Assembly (NCBI GenBank): GCA_046727575.1
Contig: JBKPCV010000054.1
Location: 21-64,020, forward strand
DNA length: 64,000 bases
Direction of reading: 5' to 3'
Source: Actinomycetota bacterium
GTDB taxonomy: Bacteria > Actinomycetota > Acidimicrobiia > IMCC26256 > DASPTH01
Of this stretch, positions 1 through 26,737 are shown piece by piece. The position numbers were made by a program, and so were the translations under genes. Numbering within the stretch: position 1 is the stretch's first letter; each line of letters begins with the position of its first letter. A model generated the notes under the pieces. It was not told the DNA's origin. It saw only the letters and a program-made list of their open reading frames with translations, and did not search any database.

Positions 1-396
<396 letters not shown>

Positions 397-2343: not shown

Positions 2344-2373
2344 CTCTACGCTCCACGCGCCGGCGCGGGGCCG

Positions 2374-2427
2374 CTCGGACCACGGCTCGTTGCGGCGCAG
2401 GCTACCTTCGCCGCGGCCACTCGCCTC
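2374..2427. repeat. GC-rich hairpin repeat, copy in the tyrS 5' region / mpg 3' region
   Basis: ctcggaccacggctcgttGCGGCGCAGGctaCCTTCGCCGCggccactcgcctc; ~85% identical to copies at 5761 and 23283. Confidence 0.7.
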
Positions 2428-2440
2428 ATGCCGGGGGACG

Positions 2441-3053: not shown

Positions 3054-4436
3054 TCAACGCTCGAGCCAACGCGCCTGTTCGTCGAGCCGCTGCTTGGCGG
3101 CGTCGAGTTGCTCGGCGACCGAATCGGCACCGGCCCCGCCGGCGCTCGTCCGGCGCGCGACGGCGGCGCCGGGCTCGAGGAGCGCGAGGGCGTCAGGACC
3201 GAGGTCGGGCTCGGTCATCACCAGCTCGTCGAGCGGCACCCGCCGCTCTTCGGACTGTCGCACAAGTACCCCGACGCGCCTGTGCGCCTCGCGGAACGGG
3301 ACGCCGCGCTCTACGAGCCATTCGGCGAGGTCGACGGCCGCGGACGTGGGGGTGTCCGCAGCCGCCCGCATGCGTTCAGGCAGGAACTCGGCGGTGGCGA
3401 TCAGGCCGGTCATGGCAGCGAGCGCGCGCCGATTCTGGTCGAGCGCGTCGAACAGTGGCTCCTTGTCTTCCTGGAGGTCGCGGTTGTACGCGAGCGGGAG
3501 GCCCTTGAGCGTCGCGAGGAATCCCGCGAGGTCGCCGATCAAGCGGCCGGCCTTGCCGCGCGCGAGCTCGGCGATGTCGGGATTCTTCTTCTGGGGCAAC
3601 ATCGACGATCCGGTGCTGTATGCGTCGGCGAGTCGTACGAACCCGAACTCTTCGGTGGACCAGAGCACGATCTCCTCGCCGAGGCGCGAAAGGTGGACCT
3701 GCGTGAGCGCGAGCACGAACAGCGCCTCCGCGACGAAATCGCGGTCGGACACGGCATCGAGCGAGTTGTCGAAACGACGCGCGAAGCCGAGCACGTCCGC
3801 GGTGTGGTCGGGATCGATCGGCAGGCTCGACCCGGCGAGCGCGCCGGCGCCGAGCGGCGACACGTCGACGCGCGTCAGCGTGTCGCGCCAGCGGTCGACG
3901 TCGCGGGCGAACGCCCAGAAATGCGCGAGGTGGTGGTGCGCCAGGAGAACGGGCTGCGCGCGCTGGAGGTGCGTGTAACCGGGCAGGTAGACGTCGGGTC
4001 CCGCGGCCTGCGCGCGATCCCACAGCACCTGCTGCAGCCCGTGGATCCGCCGCGCCGCATCGGTGCCCTCGCGGCGGAGGAACAGCCGCAGAGCAGTTGC
4101 GACCTGGTCGTTGCGGCTGCGCCCGGTGTGCAGCTTGGCACCGGCCGCGCCTGCGAGCTCGGTGACCCGACGTTCGATCGCGGTGTGGATGTCTTCGTCG
4201 TCCGGCGCGAAGGTGAACGTGCCCTCGACGAGCTCGACCTCGACGCGGCCGAGTGCGGCCGTGACCAGCGCCGCCTCCTCGTTCGTGAGCAGACCGACGC
4301 GTGCCAGCATCGCGACGTGCGCGCGCGAGCCCGTGACGTCGTCGGGGCCGAGGCGCCGATCGAACGGGAGACTCTCGGTGAACGCGATGAGCTCGTCGGC
4401 GGGACCATCGCCGAAACGACCGTGCCAGAGCGTCAT
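3054..4436 (-). CDS. argH: argininosuccinate lyase
   Basis: N-terminus MTLWHGRFGDGPADELIAFTESLPFDRRL, 460 aa. ATGA overlap with the argG stop. Confidence 0.97.
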   Translation of the reverse strand: MTLWHGRFGDGPADELIAFTESLPFDRRLGPDDVTGSRAHVAMLARVGLLTNEEAALVTAALGRVEVELVEGTFTFAPDDEDIHTAIERRVTELAGAAGAKLHTGRSRNDQVATALRLFLRREGTDAARRIHGLQQVLWDRAQAAGPDVYLPGYTHLQRAQPVLLAHHHLAHFWAFARDVDRWRDTLTRVDVSPLGAGALAGSSLPIDPDHTADVLGFARRFDNSLDAVSDRDFVAEALFVLALTQVHLSRLGEEIVLWSTEEFGFVRLADAYSTGSSMLPQKKNPDIAELARGKAGRLIGDLAGFLATLKGLPLAYNRDLQEDKEPLFDALDQNRRALAAMTGLIATAEFLPERMRAAADTPTSAAVDLAEWLVERGVPFREAHRRVGVLVRQSEERRVPLDELVMTEPDLGPDALALLEPGAAVARRTSAGGAGADSVAEQLDAAKQRLDEQARWLER

Positions 4437-5704
4437 CCGGCCTCCGGGCCGCCCTGCTCGCGCGCCCAGGTCTCCACGGAGAGGCCCCAGAGGCGGACGA
4501 ACCCTTCGGAGTCCTGGTGGCGGAACGTGTCCGACGCGTCATAGGTCGCCAGGTCGTAGCGGTAGAGGCCGTGCTCGGCGCGGCGGCCGGCAACGGTGCA
4601 GCTCCCCGGTTCGAGCCGCAGTCGCACATCGCCGGTGACGTGTTGTTGTGACGCCGTTATGAACGCGTCGAGCGCCTCGCGCAGCGGCGAGAACCACAGG
4701 CCGTCGTAGACGAGCTCCGCGTAACGCGGCTCCAGCCGGGACTTCTCGCGCATGAGGTCGCGCTCGAGGGTGATCGATTCGAGATCCGCGTGTGCGAGCA
4801 TCAGCGCGAGCGCGCCGGGACATTCGTAGTTCTCACGGCTCTTGATGCCGACGCGACGGTTCTCCACCATGTCGACGCGCCCCCAGCCGTACGGTCCGAC
4901 ACGAGCGGTCGTCTCGAGAACGAGCTCGTCGAGCGGCATCGCTTCACCATCGAGCGCGACCGGGACACCCTCCTCGAAGCCGACGACGAGCTCCCACGGC
5001 TCGAGCGCGCGCCCGTCGGGGTTAGTGGTGAGCGTGTAGATCTCGACGGGCGGTGCGGCCCACGGGTCCTCCAGCACGCCGCACTCGATGGCGCGGCCCC
5101 ATAGGTTCTCGTCGATCGAGAAGGGATTGTCCTTGCGCACCTTGATCGGGATGTTGTGCCGCGCCGCGTAGTCGATCGAGTCCTCACGAGTGAAGCCCCA
5201 CACACGGACCGGCGCGAGCACGTCGAGGTCGGGCGCCAGCGCGCGCACCGACACCTCGAAGCGCACCTGGTCGTTTCCCTTCCCGGTGCAACCATGGGCA
5301 ACGGCGTCGGCATTGAACGCGCGCGCCGCGCGGACGAGGTGACGCGCGATCACCGGACGCGACAACGCCGACACGAGCGGATACTTGGCCTCGTAGAGCG
5401 CGTTGGCACGAATCACGGGCGCGACGTAGCCGTCGGCGAATTCGCGCTTCGCGTCGACAACGATCGCTTCCACCGCGCCGGCGGCGAGCGCGCGGTCGCG
5501 GATCGTGTCCCAGTGACCGTCCTGTTGATGGTCGCGCTCGCTGCGGGCCGGGAAACCCGGCCCGCTCACGCTCGGCCACTCCTGCGGCTGCCCGACGTCG
5601 ACGGACAGCGCGATGACCTCGGCGCCCCACTCCTCCTGGATCCACTTCACCGCCACTGAGGTGTCGAGGCCACCCGAATATGCGAGCACCACACGCTTCG
5701 CCAT
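4433..5704 (-). CDS. argG: argininosuccinate synthase (carries a ~21-aa in-frame insertion derived from a repeat element)
   Basis: MAKRVVLAYSGGLDTSV ATP-binding N-terminus. ATG at residue 23 of ORF 4433..5770. Confidence 0.95.
   Translation of the reverse strand: MAKRVVLAYSGGLDTSVAVKWIQEEWGAEVIALSVDVGQPQEWPSVSGPGFPARSERDHQQDGHWDTIRDRALAAGAVEAIVVDAKREFADGYVAPVIRANALYEAKYPLVSALSRPVIARHLVRAARAFNADAVAHGCTGKGNDQVRFEVSVRALAPDLDVLAPVRVWGFTREDSIDYAARHNIPIKVRKDNPFSIDENLWGRAIECGVLEDPWAAPPVEIYTLTTNPDGRALEPWELVVGFEEGVPVALDGEAMPLDELVLETTARVGPYGWGRVDMVENRRVGIKSRENYECPGALALMLAHADLESITLERDLMREKSRLEPRYAELVYDGLWFSPLREALDAFITASQQHVTGDVRLRLEPGSCTVAGRRAEHGLYRYDLATYDASDTFRHQDSEGFVRLWGLSVETWAREQGGPEAG
5531..5575. 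repeat. GC-rich hairpin repeat copy embedded in frame in argG
   Basis: gtcgcgctcgctGCGGGCCGGGaaaCCCGGCCCGCtcacgctcgg, a 10-bp perfect stem. On the minus strand it encodes SVSGPGFPARSER. Confidence 0.75.
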
Positions 5705-5760
5705 GCGTTCTTCCCTTACCCTCCTACCCTCCGCTCTCGGCGGCTTTTGCCGCCGGGCTG

Positions 5761-5814
5761 CTCGGGCCACGCCTCGCTGCGGCGCAGGGTACCTGCGCCG
5801 CGAGACGCTCGGCT
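5761..5814. repeat. GC-rich hairpin repeat directly after the argR stop
   Basis: ctcgggccacgcctcgctGCGGCGCAGGgtaCCTGCGCCGCgagacgctcggctc, a 10-bp perfect stem. It abuts the argR stop at 5815. Confidence 0.8.
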
Positions 5815-6282
5815 CTAGAGACCGGCCAGACCAGCAAGCTCACCAGCGACTTGAGAACCGCGGGCGTTCTCCGAGCACACGACGAGGATGGTGTCGTCGC
5901 CGGCGACGGTACCGAGGACGTCGGGAAGACCGGCCCGGTCGATGGCGGACGCGACGACGTGCGCGGAGCCGGGCGGAGTGCGCAGCACAACGAGGTTGGT
6001 GCTGTGGGCGACCTCCACCACGAAGTCGCCCATCACCCGACGGAGATGGTCGTCGGGCGCGCTGCCCTCCTTGGCGTGCTCGGGGATCGCATACGCCGTG
6101 GCGCCGCCGGGGATGCGCACCTTGACCGCGCCGAGGTCCTCGAGGTCGCGGCTCACGGTCGCCTGCGTGGCGACGACGCCGTCGGATGCGAGGAGCTCGA
6201 CGAGCTGCACCTGGCTCGAGATCGCCTGCTCCTCGAGCAGGCGTGCGATGCGGTGCTGTCGTTGCGGCTTGCCGAGCGTCAC
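5815..6282 (-). CDS. argR: arginine repressor
   Basis: [50 protein letters not shown]. The GTG start forms a GTGA overlap with the argF stop. Confidence 0.9.
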
Positions 6283-8383: not shown

Positions 8384-9261
8384 GAGGACTCCCACCTTGG
8401 TGGCTCCGCTTCGATCATCGTCCCGATGCCCTCGCGCGTGAAGAACTCGAGCAGCAGCGCGTGCGGGACGCGCCCGTCGAGAATGTGCGCGCGGCGTACG
8501 CCGTTGCGCAACGCGTCGGCGCACGACCGGACCTTCGGGATCATCCCCTCCGAGAGCTTTCCGTCGGCCTCGAGTCGCTCGAGCCCATGCGCGTCGATCC
8601 GGGAGATCAACGTTGCCTCGTCGGGATAGTCGGCGTACAGGCCGGCGACGTCCGTGAGGTACACGAGCTTCTCGGCGTCGACCGCACGGGCGATCGCGCC
8701 GGCTGCAGTGTCGGCATTGATGTTGTAGGCCTGCCCGGCGTCGTCCACGCCGATCGTGGCGATCACCGGGATGAGCTCCTCGTTGACGAGGCGTTGCACG
8801 ATCGAGGGGTCGACGCTGGCAACATCGCCGACGAACCCGAGACGCTGGTCGCGCATCGAAACCGTGATCAGGCCGGCGTCTTCGCCGGACAACCCGACCG
8901 CGTAGGAGCCGTGGCGGTTCACGCATGCGACGACCTCGCGGTTCACCTTGCCGACGAGCGCCATGCGGACGATGTCAACGGTCTCGGCGTCCGTCACGCG
9001 CAGGCCGTCGACGAATTGCGGCTTCTTGCCGAGCCGCTGCATCAGGTCGCTGATCTGCGGGCCGCCGCCGTGCACGATCACCGGGTTCATTCCTACGTGT
9101 CGCATCAGCACGACGTCCTGGGCGAACAGATCCGCGAGCGTCGGGTCGTCCATCGCGTGCCCGCCGTACTTCACCACGACCGTCTTGCCGGCGAACTCCT
9201 GGATGTACGGAAGAGCCTCGGCGAGGATCGCCGCCTTCTCCAGCACTCTTGCGTCGCTCAC
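8380..9261 (-). CDS. argB: acetylglutamate kinase
   Basis: LPYIQEFAGKTVVVKYGGHAM..VIVHGGGPQI; GTG start. Confidence 0.95.
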   Translation of the reverse strand: MSDARVLEKAAILAEALPYIQEFAGKTVVVKYGGHAMDDPTLADLFAQDVVLMRHVGMNPVIVHGGGPQISDLMQRLGKKPQFVDGLRVTDAETVDIVRMALVGKVNREVVACVNRHGSYAVGLSGEDAGLITVSMRDQRLGFVGDVASVDPSIVQRLVNEELIPVIATIGVDDAGQAYNINADTAAGAIARAVDAEKLVYLTDVAGLYADYPDEATLISRIDAHGLERLEADGKLSEGMIPKVRSCADALRNGVRRAHILDGRVPHALLLEFFTREGIGTMIEAEPPRWESS

Positions 9262-9292
9262 GACGTCCTCATTTTTCGTCCAGCACCATGGC

Positions 9293-9366
9293 GTCGCTCG
9301 CTGCGCCCGGGGATACCCCGACCGCAGTCGCTCGCTCCGCGTGCTCGCTCGACTTCGCTCGCTCCC
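9293..9366. repeat. GC-rich hairpin repeat plus CGCTCGCT-rich tail inserted between argJ and argB
   Basis: gtcgctcgctgcgCCCGGGGataCCCCGaccgcagtcgctcgctcc, followed by gtgctcgctcgacttcgctcgctccc. Confidence 0.8.
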
Positions 9367-21376: not shown

Positions 21377-23179
21377 GTGAGCTCACTCATCGAGCAGTAC
21401 GCGCTCATCGGCGACACACAGACGGCCGCGCTCGTCGGCAACGACGGGTCGATCGACTGGCTGTGCGTGCCCCGGTTCGACTCGGAGGCGTGTTTCGCCG
21501 CGTTGCTCGGCGACGAACGCGACGGCCGCTGGCTCATCGGTCCAGCAAGTGGCGCGCGCGCGACGCGCCGGCGGTACCGCGACGACACGCTCGTGCTCGA
21601 GACCGAGTACGAGACTCCCGACGGGATCGTTCGCGTCACGGACTGCATGCCGATCCGAGACCGCACCATCGACATCGTGCGCGTGGTCAAAGGAGTGCGC
21701 GGTACCGTACCCATGAAACTAGAACTGTGGGTGCGATTCGACTACGGGAACGTGGTGCCATGGGTGCGCTCCACCGACCATACGGTCCTCATGATCGCGG
21801 GCCCCGACGCCCTCCGGCTCGTCTCGCCGTTCAAGATCACCGGACACGAGTTTCGCCACGACGCTCAATTCGTCGTGGGCGAGGGCGACAGCGTGCCGTT
21901 CGTCCTCACGTGGTACCCCTCGTACCACAAGGAACCTCCGGGGATCGATCCAGTGCGCGCTGTCGCACGCACGACCGCATGGTGGCAGGACTGGTCGGCG
22001 CGGTCCACGTTCAAGGGCGAGTGGCGCGACGCGGTGCACCGTTCGCTCATCACGCTCAAGGCCCTCACCTACGCGCCGACCGGCGGCATCGTCGCCTCGC
22101 CCACGACGTCACTGCCCGAGTGGCCCGGCGGAGTTCGGAACTGGGACTACCGCTACTGCTGGCTGCGCGATGCGACGTTCACGCTCTACTCGCTGATGAT
22201 GGCCGGCTACGTCAAGGAAGCCGTCGAATGGCGTGACTGGCTGCTGCGCGCGGTCGCGGGTGACCCCTCGCATCTCCAGATCATGTACGGGCCGGCTGGC
22301 GAGCGACGCCTCGACGAGTACGAACTCGACTGGCTCGCTGGTTACGAGGGCTCGAAACCGGTGCGCGTCGGCAACGCCGCATCGAGTCAGTTCCAACTCG
22401 ACGTCTTCGGCGAGGTGTTCGACGCGTTGCACCAGGCACGCCACATGGAGGTACACGAGGACGCGAGTGCGTGGTCACTCCAACTCGCCATTCTCGAATT
22501 TCTCGAGTCGGCGTGGCAACAACCCGACGAGGGAATCTGGGAGGTGCGCGGCGGCCGCAAGGACTTCACCCACTCGAAGGTGATGGCGTGGGTGGCATTC
22601 GACCGCGCCGTACGAGGGGTCGAAGAATTCGGGCTCGAAGGCCCGGTCGACAAGTGGCGCGCCCGCCGCGATGAAGTGCACCGTGAGGTGCTCGACGAGG
22701 GTTTTGACCCCGACCGCAACACGTTCACCCAGTACTACGGATCGAAGTCGATCGACGCGAGCAGCCTCATGATCCCGTTGGTCGGCTTCCTTCCTCCCGA
22801 CGACGAACGAGTCAAGGGCACCGTTGCTGCCATCGAACGCGAGCTCGTCCTCGACGGTTTCGTGATGCGCTACGCAACCGAGGAGGGTGTCGACGGCCTC
22901 CCGCCCGGTGAGGGACTCTTCCTCCCCTGCTCCTTCTGGCTCGCCGACAACCTCTGCTTGATCGGACGTGTGGCCGACGGCCAAGCGCTGTTCGAGCGTC
23001 TGCTCGAGCTGCGCAACGACGTGGGACTGTTGTCGGAGGAGTACGACCCGAAGACGCGGCGGATGCTCGGAAATTTCCCACAGGCGTTCACACACGTGTC
23101 GCTCGTGAACACCGCCTGCAACCTCGCGCACATCACCAGTCCCGCGTCACACCGCGCCACCGGTCGGCACCGGCAGTAG
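21377..23179 (+). CDS. glycoside hydrolase family 15 (glucoamylase/trehalase-like)
   Basis: IEQYALIGDTQTAALVGNDGSIDWLCVPRFDSEACFAALLG, WDYRYCWLRDATFTL, 600 aa. Confidence 0.9.
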   Translation: MSSLIEQYALIGDTQTAALVGNDGSIDWLCVPRFDSEACFAALLGDERDGRWLIGPASGARATRRRYRDDTLVLETEYETPDGIVRVTDCMPIRDRTIDIVRVVKGVRGTVPMKLELWVRFDYGNVVPWVRSTDHTVLMIAGPDALRLVSPFKITGHEFRHDAQFVVGEGDSVPFVLTWYPSYHKEPPGIDPVRAVARTTAWWQDWSARSTFKGEWRDAVHRSLITLKALTYAPTGGIVASPTTSLPEWPGGVRNWDYRYCWLRDATFTLYSLMMAGYVKEAVEWRDWLLRAVAGDPSHLQIMYGPAGERRLDEYELDWLAGYEGSKPVRVGNAASSQFQLDVFGEVFDALHQARHMEVHEDASAWSLQLAILEFLESAWQQPDEGIWEVRGGRKDFTHSKVMAWVAFDRAVRGVEEFGLEGPVDKWRARRDEVHREVLDEGFDPDRNTFTQYYGSKSIDASSLMIPLVGFLPPDDERVKGTVAAIERELVLDGFVMRYATEEGVDGLPPGEGLFLPCSFWLADNLCLIGRVADGQALFERLLELRNDVGLLSEEYDPKTRRMLGNFPQAFTHVSLVNTACNLAHITSPASHRATGRHRQ

Positions 23180-23200
23180 GAGACGAAGCGGAGCCGTGCA

Positions 23201-23246
23201 CGAGCGAGCGGCCGCGAGCCGGGTATCCCGGCGAGCAGCGAGCGAC
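23201..23246. repeat. GC-rich hairpin repeat, inverted orientation
   Basis: cgagcgagcggccgcgaGCCGGGtatCCCGGCgagcagcgagcgac. Its reverse complement aligns with the 9293 and 26101 copies. Confidence 0.75.
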
Positions 23247-23282
23247 CCGGTATCCGGATGAGCGGGACGGCGCAGCGGGCCG

Positions 23283-23335
23283 CTCGGGCCACGCCTCCCT
23301 GGCGCAGGATACCTGCGGCGCGGTCGCTCGGCTCA
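23283..23335. repeat. GC-rich hairpin repeat directly after the hisG stop
   Basis: ctcgggccacgcctccctgGCGCAGGataCCTGCGgcgcggtcgctcggctc. A short CCGGtatCCGG hairpin lies between the two copies at 23247-23257. Confidence 0.8.
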
Positions 23336-23337
23336 GG

Positions 23338-24213
23338 TCAGTGCACGATCTTGGCGATCGGGAGCTCGATGATCCCGGCCCCACCCGCGTCCTTCAGGGC
23401 TGGGATGAGCGTGTTGATCTCCTGCTTCGACACGACGGTCTCGACGGCGTAGCCGTCTTCGCCCGACAACTTCGACACGGTCGGGGCCTTCAATGCCGGG
23501 AGCAGCGCAATGACCGCATCGAGGTTCGCAGCGTCGACGTTGAGCTTCAGGAGCACGCGACCGCGCGCTTCGAGCACACCCGTGAGCAGGCTCTGCAGCT
23601 GTTCCATCGCCTTGCGCTTGTCGGCATGCTGGTACGACTGCGGATTCGCGATCAACTCGGTGTGCGACACCATGAGCGTGTCGATGACCCTGAGGCCTGC
23701 CGCACGCAGCGCGCGTCCCGTCTCGGTGAGCTCGACGACCGCGTCGGCGATGTCAGGCACCTTCGCTTCCGTGGCGCCGTACGACAGGTGGACGTCGGCG
23801 TCGACGCCGCGCTTCGCGAAGTAGCGGCGAGTCAGGTCGGGATACTCGGTGTGCACGACGACACCATTCGGGAGGTCCGTGACCGCCCGAGCCGGCGAAT
23901 CGGCGGCGACTGCCAGAACGATCTGCACCGGACGCGCCGTCGCTTTCGAATAATGCAGCTCCGAGAGCGTCACGACGTCGACGTTGCGTTCCTCGATCCA
24001 GTCGCGCCCGGTGATCCCGAGGTCGAAGCGACCCTCCGCAACGTATTGCGGGATCTCTTGGGGGCGCAGGATCCGCACCTCGACGACGCGCGGGTCGTCG
24101 ATGGTGCCGCGGTAGTCGACGTCGGACCCGCGGTTCACCGCGAGGTCGGCGTCCTCGAAGAGCTGGAGGGTCTGGCGTTCGAGGCTGCCCTTGGGGAGCA
24201 CGAGGCGGAGCAT
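23338..24213 (-). CDS. hisG: ATP phosphoribosyltransferase (long form)
   Basis: [24 protein letters not shown]..., 291 aa. The ATG shares one nt with the ribH stop (TGATG). Confidence 0.93.
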   Translation of the reverse strand: MLRLVLPKGSLERQTLQLFEDADLAVNRGSDVDYRGTIDDPRVVEVRILRPQEIPQYVAEGRFDLGITGRDWIEERNVDVVTLSELHYSKATARPVQIVLAVAADSPARAVTDLPNGVVVHTEYPDLTRRYFAKRGVDADVHLSYGATEAKVPDIADAVVELTETGRALRAAGLRVIDTLMVSHTELIANPQSYQHADKRKAMEQLQSLLTGVLEARGRVLLKLNVDAANLDAVIALLPALKAPTVSKLSGEDGYAVETVVSKQEINTLIPALKDAGGAGIIELPIAKIVH

Positions 24214-24693: not shown

Positions 24694-24730
24694 GTCGCAC
24701 TCACTCGGCGCCGGGATACGCCATCGTCAT
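24694..24730. repeat. truncated hairpin-repeat copy
   Basis: gtcgcactcactcggcgccgggatacgccatcgtcatgg: left flank plus half a hairpin. Confidence 0.5.
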
Positions 24731-24731
24731 G

Positions 24732-24783
24732 GTTCGCTCCCTGCGCACCGGGATACCCGGTGCGCGGCCGTTCGCTCACTGCC
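24732..24783. repeat. GC-rich hairpin repeat (full copy) between ribBA and ribH
   Basis: gttcgctccctGCGCACCGGGataCCCGGTGCGCggccgttcgctcactgcc, a 10-bp perfect stem. Confidence 0.8.
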
Positions 24784-24785
24784 AC

Positions 24786-26083: not shown

Positions 26084-26737
26084 TCAGCCTTCTGCATTGG
26101 GTCGCTCGCTACGGCCGGGGGTACCCCGGCCGCTCACGCTCGCTTCCCCTCTCGTCACCAAACGTTCCACATACTTCGCCACGATGTCGACTTCGAGGTT
26201 CACGGGGTCTCCGACTGTCTTTGAACCCAGCGTCGTGACCGCGAGCGTGTGCGGGATGACCGCGACAGCGAACCCGTCGTCGAGAACGTCCGCGACGGTG
26301 AGGCTGATGCCGTCGACGGTCACCGAACCCTTCTCCACGATGTAGCGCAGCACGTACGGCGGCGCGGCGAACTCCACACGGCGTGATCCGTCGGCCAGGG
26401 GCTCCCGTGCTCGAATATGCCCGACCGCGTCCACATGGCCTTGCACGAGGTGTCCGCCGAGACGGTCCTCGAGGCGCACCGGGCGTTCGAGGTTCACCGC
26501 GTCACCAGCCTCCAGATCCCCGAGCTCGGTCCGGGTGAGTGTCTCCGTGACCGCGTCGGCCGCGAAGCCACCCTCGCCGAGCTCGACCACTGTGAGGCAG
26601 CAACCGTTCACCGCGATGGACGCCCCGATCGCCAGGTCCGTGAGCACCTGAGTCGCCGCGATCTCGATGCGCGCCCCGCCGCCGATCGGATGCACCCCGC
26701 GCACGGTGCCGACCTCCTCGACGATGCCGGTGAACAC
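26084..26737 (-). CDS. ribE: riboflavin synthase alpha chain with a repeat-derived C-terminal extension
   Basis: MFTGIVEEVGTV.. (GTG start), two lumazine-binding repeats. The tail after KYVERLV reads through the 26101 repeat. Confidence 0.93.
   Translation of the reverse strand: MFTGIVEEVGTVRGVHPIGGGARIEIAATQVLTDLAIGASIAVNGCCLTVVELGEGGFAADAVTETLTRTELGDLEAGDAVNLERPVRLEDRLGGHLVQGHVDAVGHIRAREPLADGSRRVEFAAPPYVLRYIVEKGSVTVDGISLTVADVLDDGFAVAVIPHTLAVTTLGSKTVGDPVNLEVDIVAKYVERLVTRGEASVSGRGTPGRSERPNAEG
26101..26147. repeat. GC-rich hairpin repeat inside the 3' end of ribE
   Basis: gtcgctcgctaCGGCCGGGGgtaCCCCGGCCGctcacgctcgcttcc, a 9-bp perfect stem. Confidence 0.8.

Follow-up and report, generated by a model that had tools for sequence, protein, structure and literature searches.

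Results

The argG gene and its insert

The window (the whole 64-kb stretch of DNA that was analysed) contains the arginine operon argC-J-B-D-F-R-G-H, with all of its genes in place. The argG gene lies on the minus strand at 4433..5704. It encodes an ArgG of 423 amino acids, identified from the open reading frame and a match to ArgG in the PDB (E=7e-134), and it is the only argG copy in the 64-kb window. The preliminary description of this DNA had already reported a single argG in an otherwise intact operon, and within the window this is true.

The gene hosts a 60-nt repeat unit at 5523..5582 (minus strand). This unit matches the covariance model of the repeat family with 77.6 bits and encodes E42-Q61 (EWPSVSGPGFPARSERDHQQ). 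In minus-strand direction, its layout is GGAGTGGCCGAGCG-TGA-hairpin-AGCGAGCGCGACCATCAACA. The hairpin core occupies 5543..5565 and consists of a perfect 10-bp G+C stem, as first described, with a 3-nt loop. On the plus strand it reads GCGGGCCGGG-AAA-CCCGGCCCGC, and 0 of 100 shuffles matched. The RNA of the 60-nt element folds with -35.5 kcal/mol (z = -4.4). We set the limits of the unit by the information content around 146 copies, and the exact 60-nt tandem duplication in the argG of relative L002 gives the same unit length. The span originally proposed, 5531..5575 (about 45 nt), is thus too narrow. That the copy is full and has both flanks is borne out by the repeat-family search, the covariance model, and the information content.

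The minus-strand translation across the insert (...DVGQPQEWPSVSGPGFPARSERDHQQDGHWDTIRDRALAAGAVEA...) keeps the frame with zero stops. The 423-aa open reading frame is uninterrupted, which confirms that the insert brings neither a stop codon nor a frameshift. Stretches of the predicted protein that cover the loop are VGQPQEWPSVSGPGFPAR and SERDHQQDGHWDTIR. Alignments with ArgG entries of the PDB break exactly at the insert, and query residues 43-64 are unmatched in the solved ArgG structures (M. thermoresistibile 4u7j, T. thermophilus 1j1z, and 6xnq). The alignment of orthologues delimits the insertion to 20-22 residues after the conserved DVGQ, in agreement with the earlier estimate of about 21 extra amino acids. 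Close relatives show the net gain to be 20 amino acids, or 60 nt. An in-frame copy adds about 20 residues without breaking the gene because the unit is divisible by three and open in six frames.

In the AF2 model, ArgG residues 40-63 form a coil with pLDDT <50, between a strand (29-36) and a helix (64-74). The run used a 27-sequence alignment and had a mean pLDDT of 57; it was read for local secondary structure and confidence alone. More precisely, the model, of moderate confidence, shows the insert as a disordered loop that links strand 2 to helix 2. It begins 1-3 residues past Q39, the counterpart of human ASS Gln40, for which a hydrogen bond to adenine has been proposed (PMC13289927). The loop had been thought of as possibly remote from the ATP site, but it adjoins this adenine-contacting glutamine (PMC13289927). 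Because the insert abuts this residue, it may affect ArgG catalysis.

The insert-bearing argG is under strong purifying selection, with dN/dS values of 0.05-0.12 against its relatives. The gene looks functional because the operon is intact, dN/dS is low, and carriers are separated by a dS of about 0.6. The proposal that ArgG is probably functional with a repeat-encoded loop is supported by the same operon and dN/dS evidence.

Other copies in the window

Eight copies, including the one in argG, were located in the 64-kb window with the repeat family D6 and the covariance model. The other seven have the same flanks, and their stems differ but stay complementary. They lie in short spacers beside gene ends, each co-oriented with its upstream gene. 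A subfamily-B copy with a second hairpin lies between the argR stop codon and the argG ribosome-binding site (5726..5815, minus strand, limits approximate; covariance-model match 5758..5822). This spacer is just TCTCTAGGAGGAACTCATG in L004, L002, L003, and L121, and it is about 90 nt longer in the window and L124. The repeat family and the covariance model also place minus-strand copies in the argJ/argB spacer (9280..9345) and the ribBA/ribH spacer (24721..24785). In the orthologous argJ/argB spacer, L001 carries the repeat in sense and L004 in antisense orientation, and L122 retains nothing but flank remnants.

Between ribE and ribBA, a further minus-strand copy (26088..26153; open reading frame, homologue alignment, and covariance model) is read through by the ribE frame (26084..26737, minus strand). 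The last 20 or so residues of RibE (SVSGRGTPGRSER) are repeat-encoded, in the same frame as in ArgG. Alignments with solved RibE homologues end at about residue 195-202 of 217. The tail of ribE does come, as had been noticed, from the same element frame.

The remaining copies were matched by the covariance model. One is on the plus strand at 23194..23258, just past the stop of the plus-strand gene 21377..23179. A subfamily-B copy lies on the minus strand at 23280..23341, just past the hisG stop (23338, minus strand). These two form a tail-to-tail pair, each trailing its own upstream gene. Another subfamily-B copy (2371..2434, minus strand) lies between a DNA glycosylase gene (stop 2441) and tyrS. 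Rfam gave no match in the whole window at gathering score except SSU rRNA at 1..396, and none in 5450..5850 at E<=1.

The repeat family in Acidimicrobiia

At least 37 Acidimicrobiia/Actinomycetota assemblies contain the core motif, which matched more than 116 stretches in total. Across a clade of uncultured Acidimicrobiia, a copy turns up about every 8-10 kb. The conserved block spans about 60 nt with a G+C content of about 70-75%. A 10-bp stem capped by a UAY loop lies between the 5' flank (GGAGCGAGCG-nCC) and the 3' flank (AGCGAGCGAG-nCCAUG...). Directly before the stem, copies read GCCC, GGCC, GTCC, or GACC, with the flank GAGCGAGCG. The stem of the family strongly covaries. Among 103 matches of the covariance model, 97% of stem cells are paired; both sides have changed in 90 stem cells versus 18 expected, a number reached by no shuffle. 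The stem in argG is the family consensus, found in 50 of 147 copies, and every ArgG copy carries it.

Of the copies that separate co-directional genes, 42 run in the sense orientation and 9 in antisense (p = 3e-6). For many intercistronic copies, the distance from the hairpin to the following start codon is 13-20 nt. In L001 and L057, argB starts at the element's own CCATG. Close neighbours (<=250 nt) form 18 direct and 2 inverted pairs, and tandem pairs are spaced 48-63 nt. We considered CRISPR for the tandem copies and rejected it: the spacing is 48-128 nt, there are no regular unique spacers, and copies lie inside operons and genes.

Terminal inverted repeats are absent (the 5' end matches the reverse-complemented 3' end at 2.5 of 12 positions), and the two flanks repeat each other directly, with 6.9 of 8 positions alike. 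The comparison of filled and empty sites gave possible but ambiguous 3-nt repeats, CGG at argG and TAG at argR-argG, with diverged junctions. No target motif for insertion was identified at the polymorphic sites compared. No transposase, RAYT included, was seen in the 64-kb window or in the 8-21 kb pieces of other genomes. As neither a transposase nor terminal inverted repeats nor a clear target-site duplication came to light in this material, it is solely the pattern of presence and absence that points to mobility.

In-frame copies in other proteins

The ArgG insertion is not unique. It is one among many in-frame insertions of this family. Intergenic sites are nevertheless preferred: only 9 of 131 copies pass a strict criterion for lying inside coding sequence. 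At least 10 proteins besides ArgG host in-frame copies, with four of the six frames in use. The copy has Pfam domains on both sides in a molybdopterin oxidoreductase, NuoL, two acyl-CoA dehydrogenases (ACADs), Mfd, DnaE2, and an ImuB-like protein. The same is true of FtsY and Lon, with two in-frame copies each, and of a LipB-LipA open reading frame (a lipB-lipA fusion). In these hosts, the siting in loops or linkers was judged from Pfam domain boundaries, and in ArgG from the moderate AF2 model.

The host families were identified from DNA loci. A doubled 40-aa profile of the element peptide, run against a 5.8-billion-protein database, scored 46 candidates and returned 12 tiny hypothetical open reading frames. 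Copies near the 5' ends of Ku, LeuA, and GuaA were counted as upstream, not internal. Apparent inside-gene calls in L020 and L036 (minus) had wrong frames and were dismissed by eye and with Pfam.

Filled, empty and altered argG sites

An empty site in close relatives, which the preliminary description had proposed to look for, was found. Most orthologues, many at 87-91% identity, read GQTADDDW (GQTADDDWDTIR); the site is empty in L004, L121, L122, and about 20 further homologues. The objection raised there, a homologous insert throughout the phylum that lacks the hairpin, does not apply because most orthologues have the empty site. A single copy is present in the window, L124, L001, P0003, and P0005. 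Two exact tandem copies occur in L002, the copy of L003 has its hairpin deleted, and L123 has a degenerate copy.

The dS between carrier lineages is about 0.6, and most pairs fall within 0.54-0.88. In the NJ tree of ArgG, carriers are interleaved with empty-site sequences. The phylogeny is near-star by dS, so the ArgG tree cannot decide between one and several insertion events. Carriers form no clean clade, so one insertion event would explain them only together with subsequent recombination or loss. L003, which bears the remnant, is sister to the empty L121 (dS 0.26), and the differences between them are concentrated just upstream of the insert. A Ser-to-Cys variant, ALCVDVGQ, is present in 5 of 7 carriers versus 0 of 20 insert-free sequences (alignment A2). 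This linkage and the cluster of L003/L121 differences point to allele transfer by homologous recombination. The ArgG carriers probably descend from one insertion that later spread via recombination.

The element core in argG has 0-1 third-position changes between lineages with about 42% synonymous-site difference (P ~0.001-0.014 per pair). With so few changes at this divergence, pure neutrality of the insert is insufficient.

Discussion

Origin of the argG insert

We consider it very likely that the argG insert is an in-frame, tolerated copy of a dispersed palindromic repeat family, G+C-rich and about 60 nt long. The usual site of this family is a short intra-operon spacer or the position immediately after a stop codon, in the direction of transcription. 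Close relatives differ by gains and losses of copies, and tandem duplication is frequent. In coding sequence, the residues added are hydrophilic and rich in Gly, Pro, Arg, and Ser. Such copies, landed or recombined in, would persist in loops and linkers alone. In argG, the ATP-pyrophosphatase domain would have received its copy directly after DVGQ, in the loop that joins strand 2 to helix 2. An ArgG still under strong purifying selection would have carried it ever since, with a loop that is probably neutral or nearly so for catalysis. The family as a whole would move as a non-autonomous element.

The same features can be read differently. The hairpin in argG might be kept for a role as nucleic acid (RNA stabiliser or processing site, translational pause, or protein-binding site), the loop being a dual-use by-product. 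The core far more conserved between carriers than argG synonymous sites, the covarying stems, the orientation with transcription (42:9), the very stable fold, and the intercistronic hairpins often 13-20 nt before the next start codon would agree with this role. However, many relatives with the empty site manage without the hairpin, and the gene is intact in L003 and L123, where it is deleted and decayed. Low divergence would also result from recent copying or gene conversion, given that the argG stem is the family consensus. The strand test for sense RNA is not significant (G.U 13 versus A.C 6, p = 0.17), and we regard this role as unlikely. Repeated site-specific insertion, precise excision, or both, by a dedicated enzyme such as a Y1/HUH transposase acting on single-stranded hairpins, is possible and still rather doubtful. 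It would account for the interleaving of carriers with empties, the pairing of L003 with L121, empty sites identical to the outgroup state, the opposite orientations in the argJ/argB spacer of different relatives, and the consensus stem of all ArgG copies. Nevertheless, the near-star phylogeny leaves the interleaving weakly supported. The linked ALCVDVGQ variant and the clustered L003/L121 differences argue against it as well, as does the failure to find a transposase or target motif in the 64-kb window and the 8-21 kb pieces from elsewhere.

That the loop is an adaptive, lineage-specific feature of ArgG (regulation, oligomerisation, or partner binding), with the likeness to the repeat being secondary, seems very unlikely. 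The insert does adjoin the ATP pocket (PMC13289927), and its reading frame has been held over a dS of about 0.6. On the other hand, the DNA has the full repeat signature, hairpin and non-coding-type flanks, and the 60-nt unit interrupts unrelated proteins in other frames and orientations. Moreover, the insert is halved in L003, doubled in L002, scrambled in L123, and modelled as disordered. An assembly artefact or an argG pseudogene is the least credible explanation and can hardly be entertained. The window and its relatives are metagenome-derived, and the long-read assembly L001 has probable frameshift errors nearby (a truncated argD and a fused argF-argR call). But at least five assemblies, produced independently by different projects, contain the insert; those of JGI and ENA (L124, L001, L002) rule against the artefact that the preliminary description had allowed for. 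As for a pseudogene, the reading frame is uninterrupted, and a dN/dS of about 0.1 is incompatible with it.

A bolder proposal, which we hold to be improbable, treats the 60-nt unit as both an intercistronic RNA hairpin module and a frame-neutral mobile cassette, precisely inserted and removed by a hairpin-specific enzyme, with dual-coding copies inside genes. This proposal would account both for the near-invariant argG hairpin at a synonymous divergence of about 0.6 and for filled sites being interleaved with perfectly empty ones.

Comparison with known repeats

Like the REP/BIME and REPIN-RAYT elements of proteobacteria, the Acidimicrobiia repeat is a short, imperfect palindrome, rich in G+C, whose flanks are conserved; it occurs in hundreds of copies, with a preference for extragenic sites. 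In both, the stem covaries, and there are mosaic subfamilies that contain additional hairpins. It differs from them in the lack of a 5' GTAG and in neighbours that are direct tandems (18) rather than inverted pairs (2). Copies in coding sequence, rare for REPs, are common here. Unlike MITEs, it has no terminal inverted repeats (2.5/12).

MIRUs, attributed to Supply et al. 1997, are reportedly actinobacterial repeats of 50-100 bp that lie inside operons, are oriented with transcription, vary in tandem copy number, and overlap stop and start codons. They are not known to be built around a strong hairpin. To our knowledge, there are no in-frame MIRU insertions into enzymes. By description, the Acidimicrobiia repeat is MIRU-like in its transcription-oriented intra-operon spacers (the seven window copies; 42 versus 9). 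It is likewise similar in its variable tandem number (two copies in argG of L002, one elsewhere).

Neisseria REP2 and Borrelia IR elements lie directly upstream of genes and supply the ribosome-binding region and the ATG; REP2 has 134-154 nt and also a promoter (PMC3184786). The CCATG that starts argB in L001 and L057 is comparable. However, the Acidimicrobiia repeat has no evident promoter, and most of its copies are inside operons. According to PMC3184786, the betaproteobacterial repeat element (BRE, Hot et al. 2011) is about 90 nt long, lies inside about nine protein genes, and extends 5' or 3' gene ends. Compared by description only, in-gene copies and gene-end extension are common to both repeats, whereas phylum, length, and sequence differ.

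Rickettsia palindromic elements (RPEs; Ogata et al. 2000) are described in PMC10969869 and PMC3184786 as A+T-rich elements of about 105-150 bp, restricted to obligate intracellular alpha-proteobacteria. In both systems, a dispersed palindrome lies between genes and in frame in unrelated housekeeping genes; the reading frame is kept, a peptide is added, and the host genes are functional. In contrast, the Acidimicrobiia unit has 60 nt, 70-75% G+C, and a single REP-like hairpin. Its hosts are free-living, at least four reading frames are in use, and it is often arrayed in tandem. It is RPE-like in behaviour and set apart from the RPE families by length, G+C content, and host; a relationship in sequence is not to be expected. 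We found no account of an Acidimicrobiia repeat family in the literature. The in-frame pattern is known from Rickettsia and seemingly undescribed for Acidimicrobiia.

Implications

The repeat can mislead annotation through spurious small open reading frames, longer tails (ribE), fusions (lipB-lipA), and apparent lineage-specific loops. The invasion of essential genes in frame by small palindromes is a textbook oddity of Rickettsia. Here it occurs at scale in free-living bacteria, the abundant uncultured soil Acidimicrobiia with genomes of 70% G+C. For enzymes such as ArgG, Lon, NuoL, Mfd, and DnaE2, it is a natural experiment on the positions at which insertions of 20 residues are tolerated. 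Because it is placed strictly beside stop and start codons inside operons, the family is a candidate for an undescribed post-transcriptional module in this little-studied class. If the RNA-module reading is true, its stop-proximal flank and its ribosome-binding/ATG end would set the relative expression of operon genes.

A repeat copy inserted in frame in argG

The argG gene (4433..5704, minus strand) encodes 423 residues. At plus-strand positions 5543..5565, its insert reads GCGGGCCGGG-AAA-CCCGGCCCGC, a perfect 10-bp stem with a 3-nt loop, matched in 0 of 100 shuffles. On the coding strand it gives ...SVDVGQPQEWPSVSGPGFPARSERDHQQDGHWDTIRDRALAAGAVEA... with neither stops nor frameshifts. The HMMER alignment of ArgG with solved structures breaks exactly at the insert. 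Residues 43-64 of the query are unmatched in M. thermoresistibile 4u7j and T. thermophilus 1j1z, and 6xnq shows a 22-residue gap. This agrees with the in-frame insertion proposed in the preliminary description. Likewise, argG was found once in the 64-kb window, within an intact argC-J-B-D-F-R-G-H cluster, so its description as a single gene in an intact operon holds for the window.

A repeat search grouped the argG segment with three others having the same flanks and differing but complementary stems, as expected from its earlier reading as a repeat copy. A hairpin scan gave a fifth copy, and the five were then aligned. A covariance model built from seven copies matched eight in the window: inside argG (5520..5585), between argR and argG (5758..5822), between argJ and argB (9280..9345), between ribBA and ribH (24721..24785), between ribE and ribBA (26088..26153), between a DNA-glycosylase gene and tyrS (2371..2434), and as a tail-to-tail pair between two convergent genes (23194..23258, plus strand; 23280..23341, minus strand). 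All the non-coding copies occupy a short spacer adjoining a gene end, in the orientation of the upstream gene. The ribE ORF runs through its copy in the frame used in ArgG (SVSGRGTPGRSER), and alignments with solved RibE homologues end at about residue 195-202 of 217. Both points uphold the proposed origin of the ribE tail from this frame. Downstream of tyrS, a 16S rRNA gene (1-396, minus strand; Rfam SSU_rRNA_bacteria, 377 bits) is truncated by the start of the window, with its 5' part inside.

Length and structure of the unit

We anchored 146 copies on the hairpin and measured the information content along the flanks. It rises from background at about -13 (GGAGCGAGCG-nCC) and returns to it at about +23 (AGCGAGCGAG-nCCA-nnn-AG-nn-GG). 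Because the information is limited to this interval, the unit is about 60 nt. An exact 60-nt tandem duplication inside argG of the relative L002 has the same size. The flanks are direct repeats of GAGCGAGCG; they present neither terminal inverted repeats nor GTAG. As RNA, the 60-nt element folds at -35.5 kcal/mol (z = -4.4), and the opposite strand folds equally well. In our translation of the consensus, all six frames are open.

The subfamilies form a mosaic, BIME-like architecture. Subfamily B copies directly follow stop codons, and the TGA of the upstream gene often lies inside the 5' flank (TGAGCGAGCG). These copies carry a 3' extension, GGCGTGGCCCGAGCGGCCCGG…, with a second hairpin (window 5726-5757; also in loci L011, L032, L058 and L091). 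In other subfamilies, the extension is on the 5' side and includes a small GCTCGCCAGCGAGC hairpin.

Filled and empty sites

We compared the insert states in 27 ArgG homologues, the closest being annotated Acidimicrobiia. Twenty present an empty-type site (GQ-TAD-DDWDTIR or a near variant), including sequences 87-91% identical to the query. The proteins P0001, P0003, P0004 and P0005 have one unit, and P0002 has two. P0006 keeps the flanks and has lost the hairpin (MEQPSGREREHQQV), and P0025 (78% identity) has a degenerate version. The DNA bears out these states codon by codon. The empty site is CAR ACS GCM GAY GAC GAY TGG, and the filled site is CAR nnn nnG GAG CnG CCG AGC G...hairpin...AGC GAG CGC GAC CAT SAA ... 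TGG. Since the empty site has neither the GAGCG flanks nor the CCATG tail, both flanks and the tail were brought in by the element and do not represent a target duplication. An assembly artefact, considered in the preliminary description, is ruled out as the source because independent JGI and ENA assemblies contain the insert.

Other sites are also polymorphic. The argR-argG spacer consists of TCTCTAGGAGGAACTCATG in four relatives and is about 90 nt longer in the window and in L124. Between argJ and argB, the copy is sense in the window and in L001 but antisense in L004, and L122 retains no more than remnants of the flanks. In the long-read assembly L001, argD is a 178-aa fragment and argF-argR is one 465-aa product (L001:7995-9925). 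These anomalies are probably assembly indel errors and not true fusions, and single-base frame calls there need caution. The same locus has a LAGLIDADG_1 homing-endonuclease ORF (L001:20274-20804) in a 5-kb stretch otherwise devoid of called genes. It is downstream of the arg/tyrS region, where the window has the rRNA operon, and could be encoded by an intron within an rRNA gene.

Selection on ArgG and position of the loop

A pseudogene evolves near neutrally. We estimated dN/dS (Nei-Gojobori) on the codon alignment without the insert. Every pair had values of 0.05-0.12, carriers included, and carrier lineages are about 0.6 apart in dS. This constraint is the sign of a functional enzyme, as had been supposed for an ArgG with a repeat-encoded loop.

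The AF2 model, built on a 27-sequence alignment, is moderate in quality (mean pLDDT 57). Residues 40-63 are modelled as coil with pLDDT below 50, between a strand (29-36) and a helix (64-74). The insert starts 1-3 residues after Q39, which aligns with human ASS Gln40. This glutamine is proposed to hydrogen-bond the ATP adenine; in a deep mutational scan, Gln40 and Ala36 belonged to the ATP-site residues that tolerate substitution better (PMC13289927). From this alignment, the loop would lie at the rim of the nucleotide pocket. The preliminary description asked whether the loop is away from the ATP site; it is modelled as coil, and by this alignment it is not remote from that site.

History of the ArgG insert

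In the NJ tree, carriers and empty-site sequences are interleaved. The remnant-bearing L003 pairs with the empty L121 (98.7% amino-acid identity, dS 0.26), and most other pairs have dS of 0.54-0.88. The tree is nearly star-shaped and so cannot count insertion events; recurrent site-specific insertion or precise excision is possible. Nevertheless, a single insertion followed by allele transfer seems favoured, because the unit is at the same codon in every carrier, a Ser-to-Cys change (ALCVDVGQ) is linked to it (5 of 7 carriers versus 0 of 20 insert-free sequences in the alignment), and the differences between L003 and L121 are concentrated just upstream of the insert. That the carriers share the stem GCGGGCCGGG does not argue for a single origin, since this is the consensus stem of the family (50 of 147 copies).

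The 36-nt core in argG differs at 0-1 third positions between lineages that have diverged at about 42% of synonymous sites (P ~0.001-0.014 per pair). Possibly, the hairpin is constrained at the nucleotide level. Its deletion in one lineage and decay in another speak against a universal constraint. It is also possible that gene conversion from other copies homogenises the hairpin, or that the copies are more recent than the gene tree would imply.

Distribution and covariation

An exact-pattern scan of GTDB species genomes found the core motif in at least 116 stretches. All the matches listed come from Acidimicrobiia/Actinomycetota MAGs, and these 80 stretches represent at least 37 different assemblies. 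Some carrier MAGs are titled 'uncultured Bifidobacteriaceae bacterium' (L007-L009, L020, L042, L043, L074; binchicken assemblies); this is probably a taxonomic mislabel, the repeat being of the Acidimicrobiia type. The covariance model recovered 103 copies in the 80 loci. The search pattern left four stem positions free. These show both-sided pair changes in 17-26 of 103 sequences (e.g. GC to AU, GC to CG). Overall, 97% of stem cells are paired, versus 86% in shuffles and 35-49% with slid partners. Rfam gave no family match to the element, even at E<=1. The public 35-70-aa 'hypothetical proteins' P0121-P0132 are bare translations of intergenic copies, that is, annotation noise produced by the family.

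Placement and other protein hosts

A gene caller based on GC3 and codon usage, together with a stricter flank test, flagged copies deep inside ORFs. Wrong-frame calls and copies truly upstream of start codons were dropped, and Pfam verified the true hosts, in which domains flank the copy on either side. The strict test places 9 of 131 copies within coding sequences. This is far under coding density, which indicates a strong preference for, or retention at, intergenic sites. Between co-directional genes, sense copies outnumber antisense ones (42 versus 9, p = 3e-6; 36:13 with the first caller). Adjacent copies usually form direct tandems (18, against 2 inverted pairs). About 20 of 57 co-oriented copies are followed, 12-22 nt beyond the stem, by an in-frame start codon. 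In two relatives, the CCATG tail is the argB start codon (…GCGAGCGACGCCATG; L001:6436-6475, MVKAAILAEALP; L057:4626-4670, MEKAVILAEALP). The window counterpart of that ATG opens a 6-codon mini-ORF before the argB GTG start at 9261.

The hosts include a molybdopterin oxidoreductase (L047), an ImuB-like Y-family polymerase (L036), FtsY (L049, two tandem copies) and Lon (L110, two tandem copies immediately before the Walker A motif). NuoL (L054), Mfd (L099) and DnaE2 (L023) contain antisense copies, the last cutting the DNA_pol3_alpha domain in two. Two orthologous acyl-CoA dehydrogenases (L051:58-1338, L027:627-1883) carry the unit at the same position of the N-terminal domain and in different frames (SGREAGIPPRSERD versus ERAPAAGVSPAAASD). 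Either the two insertions were independent, or indels inside the insert compensated each other. Finally, an antisense copy joins LipB and LipA in a continuous ORF (L031:807-2558, plus strand; 583 aa) and lies in the linker between the LplA-B (14-201) and LIAS_N/Radical_SAM (293-505) domains. A gene fusion mediated by the repeat, or the loss of a stop codon, could account for this ORF. The hosts use four frames: GRGPGIPARSER, ERAPAGRVSRPAASE, ERPRAGYPGSQRA and antisense SLAAGRDTRPAGARS. Given these proteins, ArgG is one host among several and not special.

Comparison with known repeat families

The initial observation is confirmed and its interpretation supported. By their descriptions, the Rickettsia palindromic elements (PMC10969869, PMC3184786) and the beta-proteobacterial BRE (PMC3184786) occur between genes and in frame within many genes, and the present repeat works alike. 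It is not an RPE, as it differs in sequence and size. Its build is closer to that of a REP: a single short G+C-rich hairpin between conserved flanks, with mosaic subfamilies that bear extra hairpins. It lacks the features that define REP/RAYT (GTAG, organisation in inverted pairs) and MITE (terminal inverted repeats). Its habitat resembles that described for mycobacterial MIRUs: intercistronic, co-oriented with transcription and with tandem variation. As in Neisseria REP2, the 3' end of the element can supply a start codon. We class it with the small palindromic repeats known to insert in frame into coding sequences.

Clear precedents exist for the phenomenon, but the Acidimicrobiia family itself appears undescribed; our literature searches returned no such family for this class. 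The strict gene-boundary placement and the unusually conserved argG hairpin leave room for a functional role. The finding widens from argG alone to a pattern of the whole repeat family in an actinobacterial clade that is uncultured.
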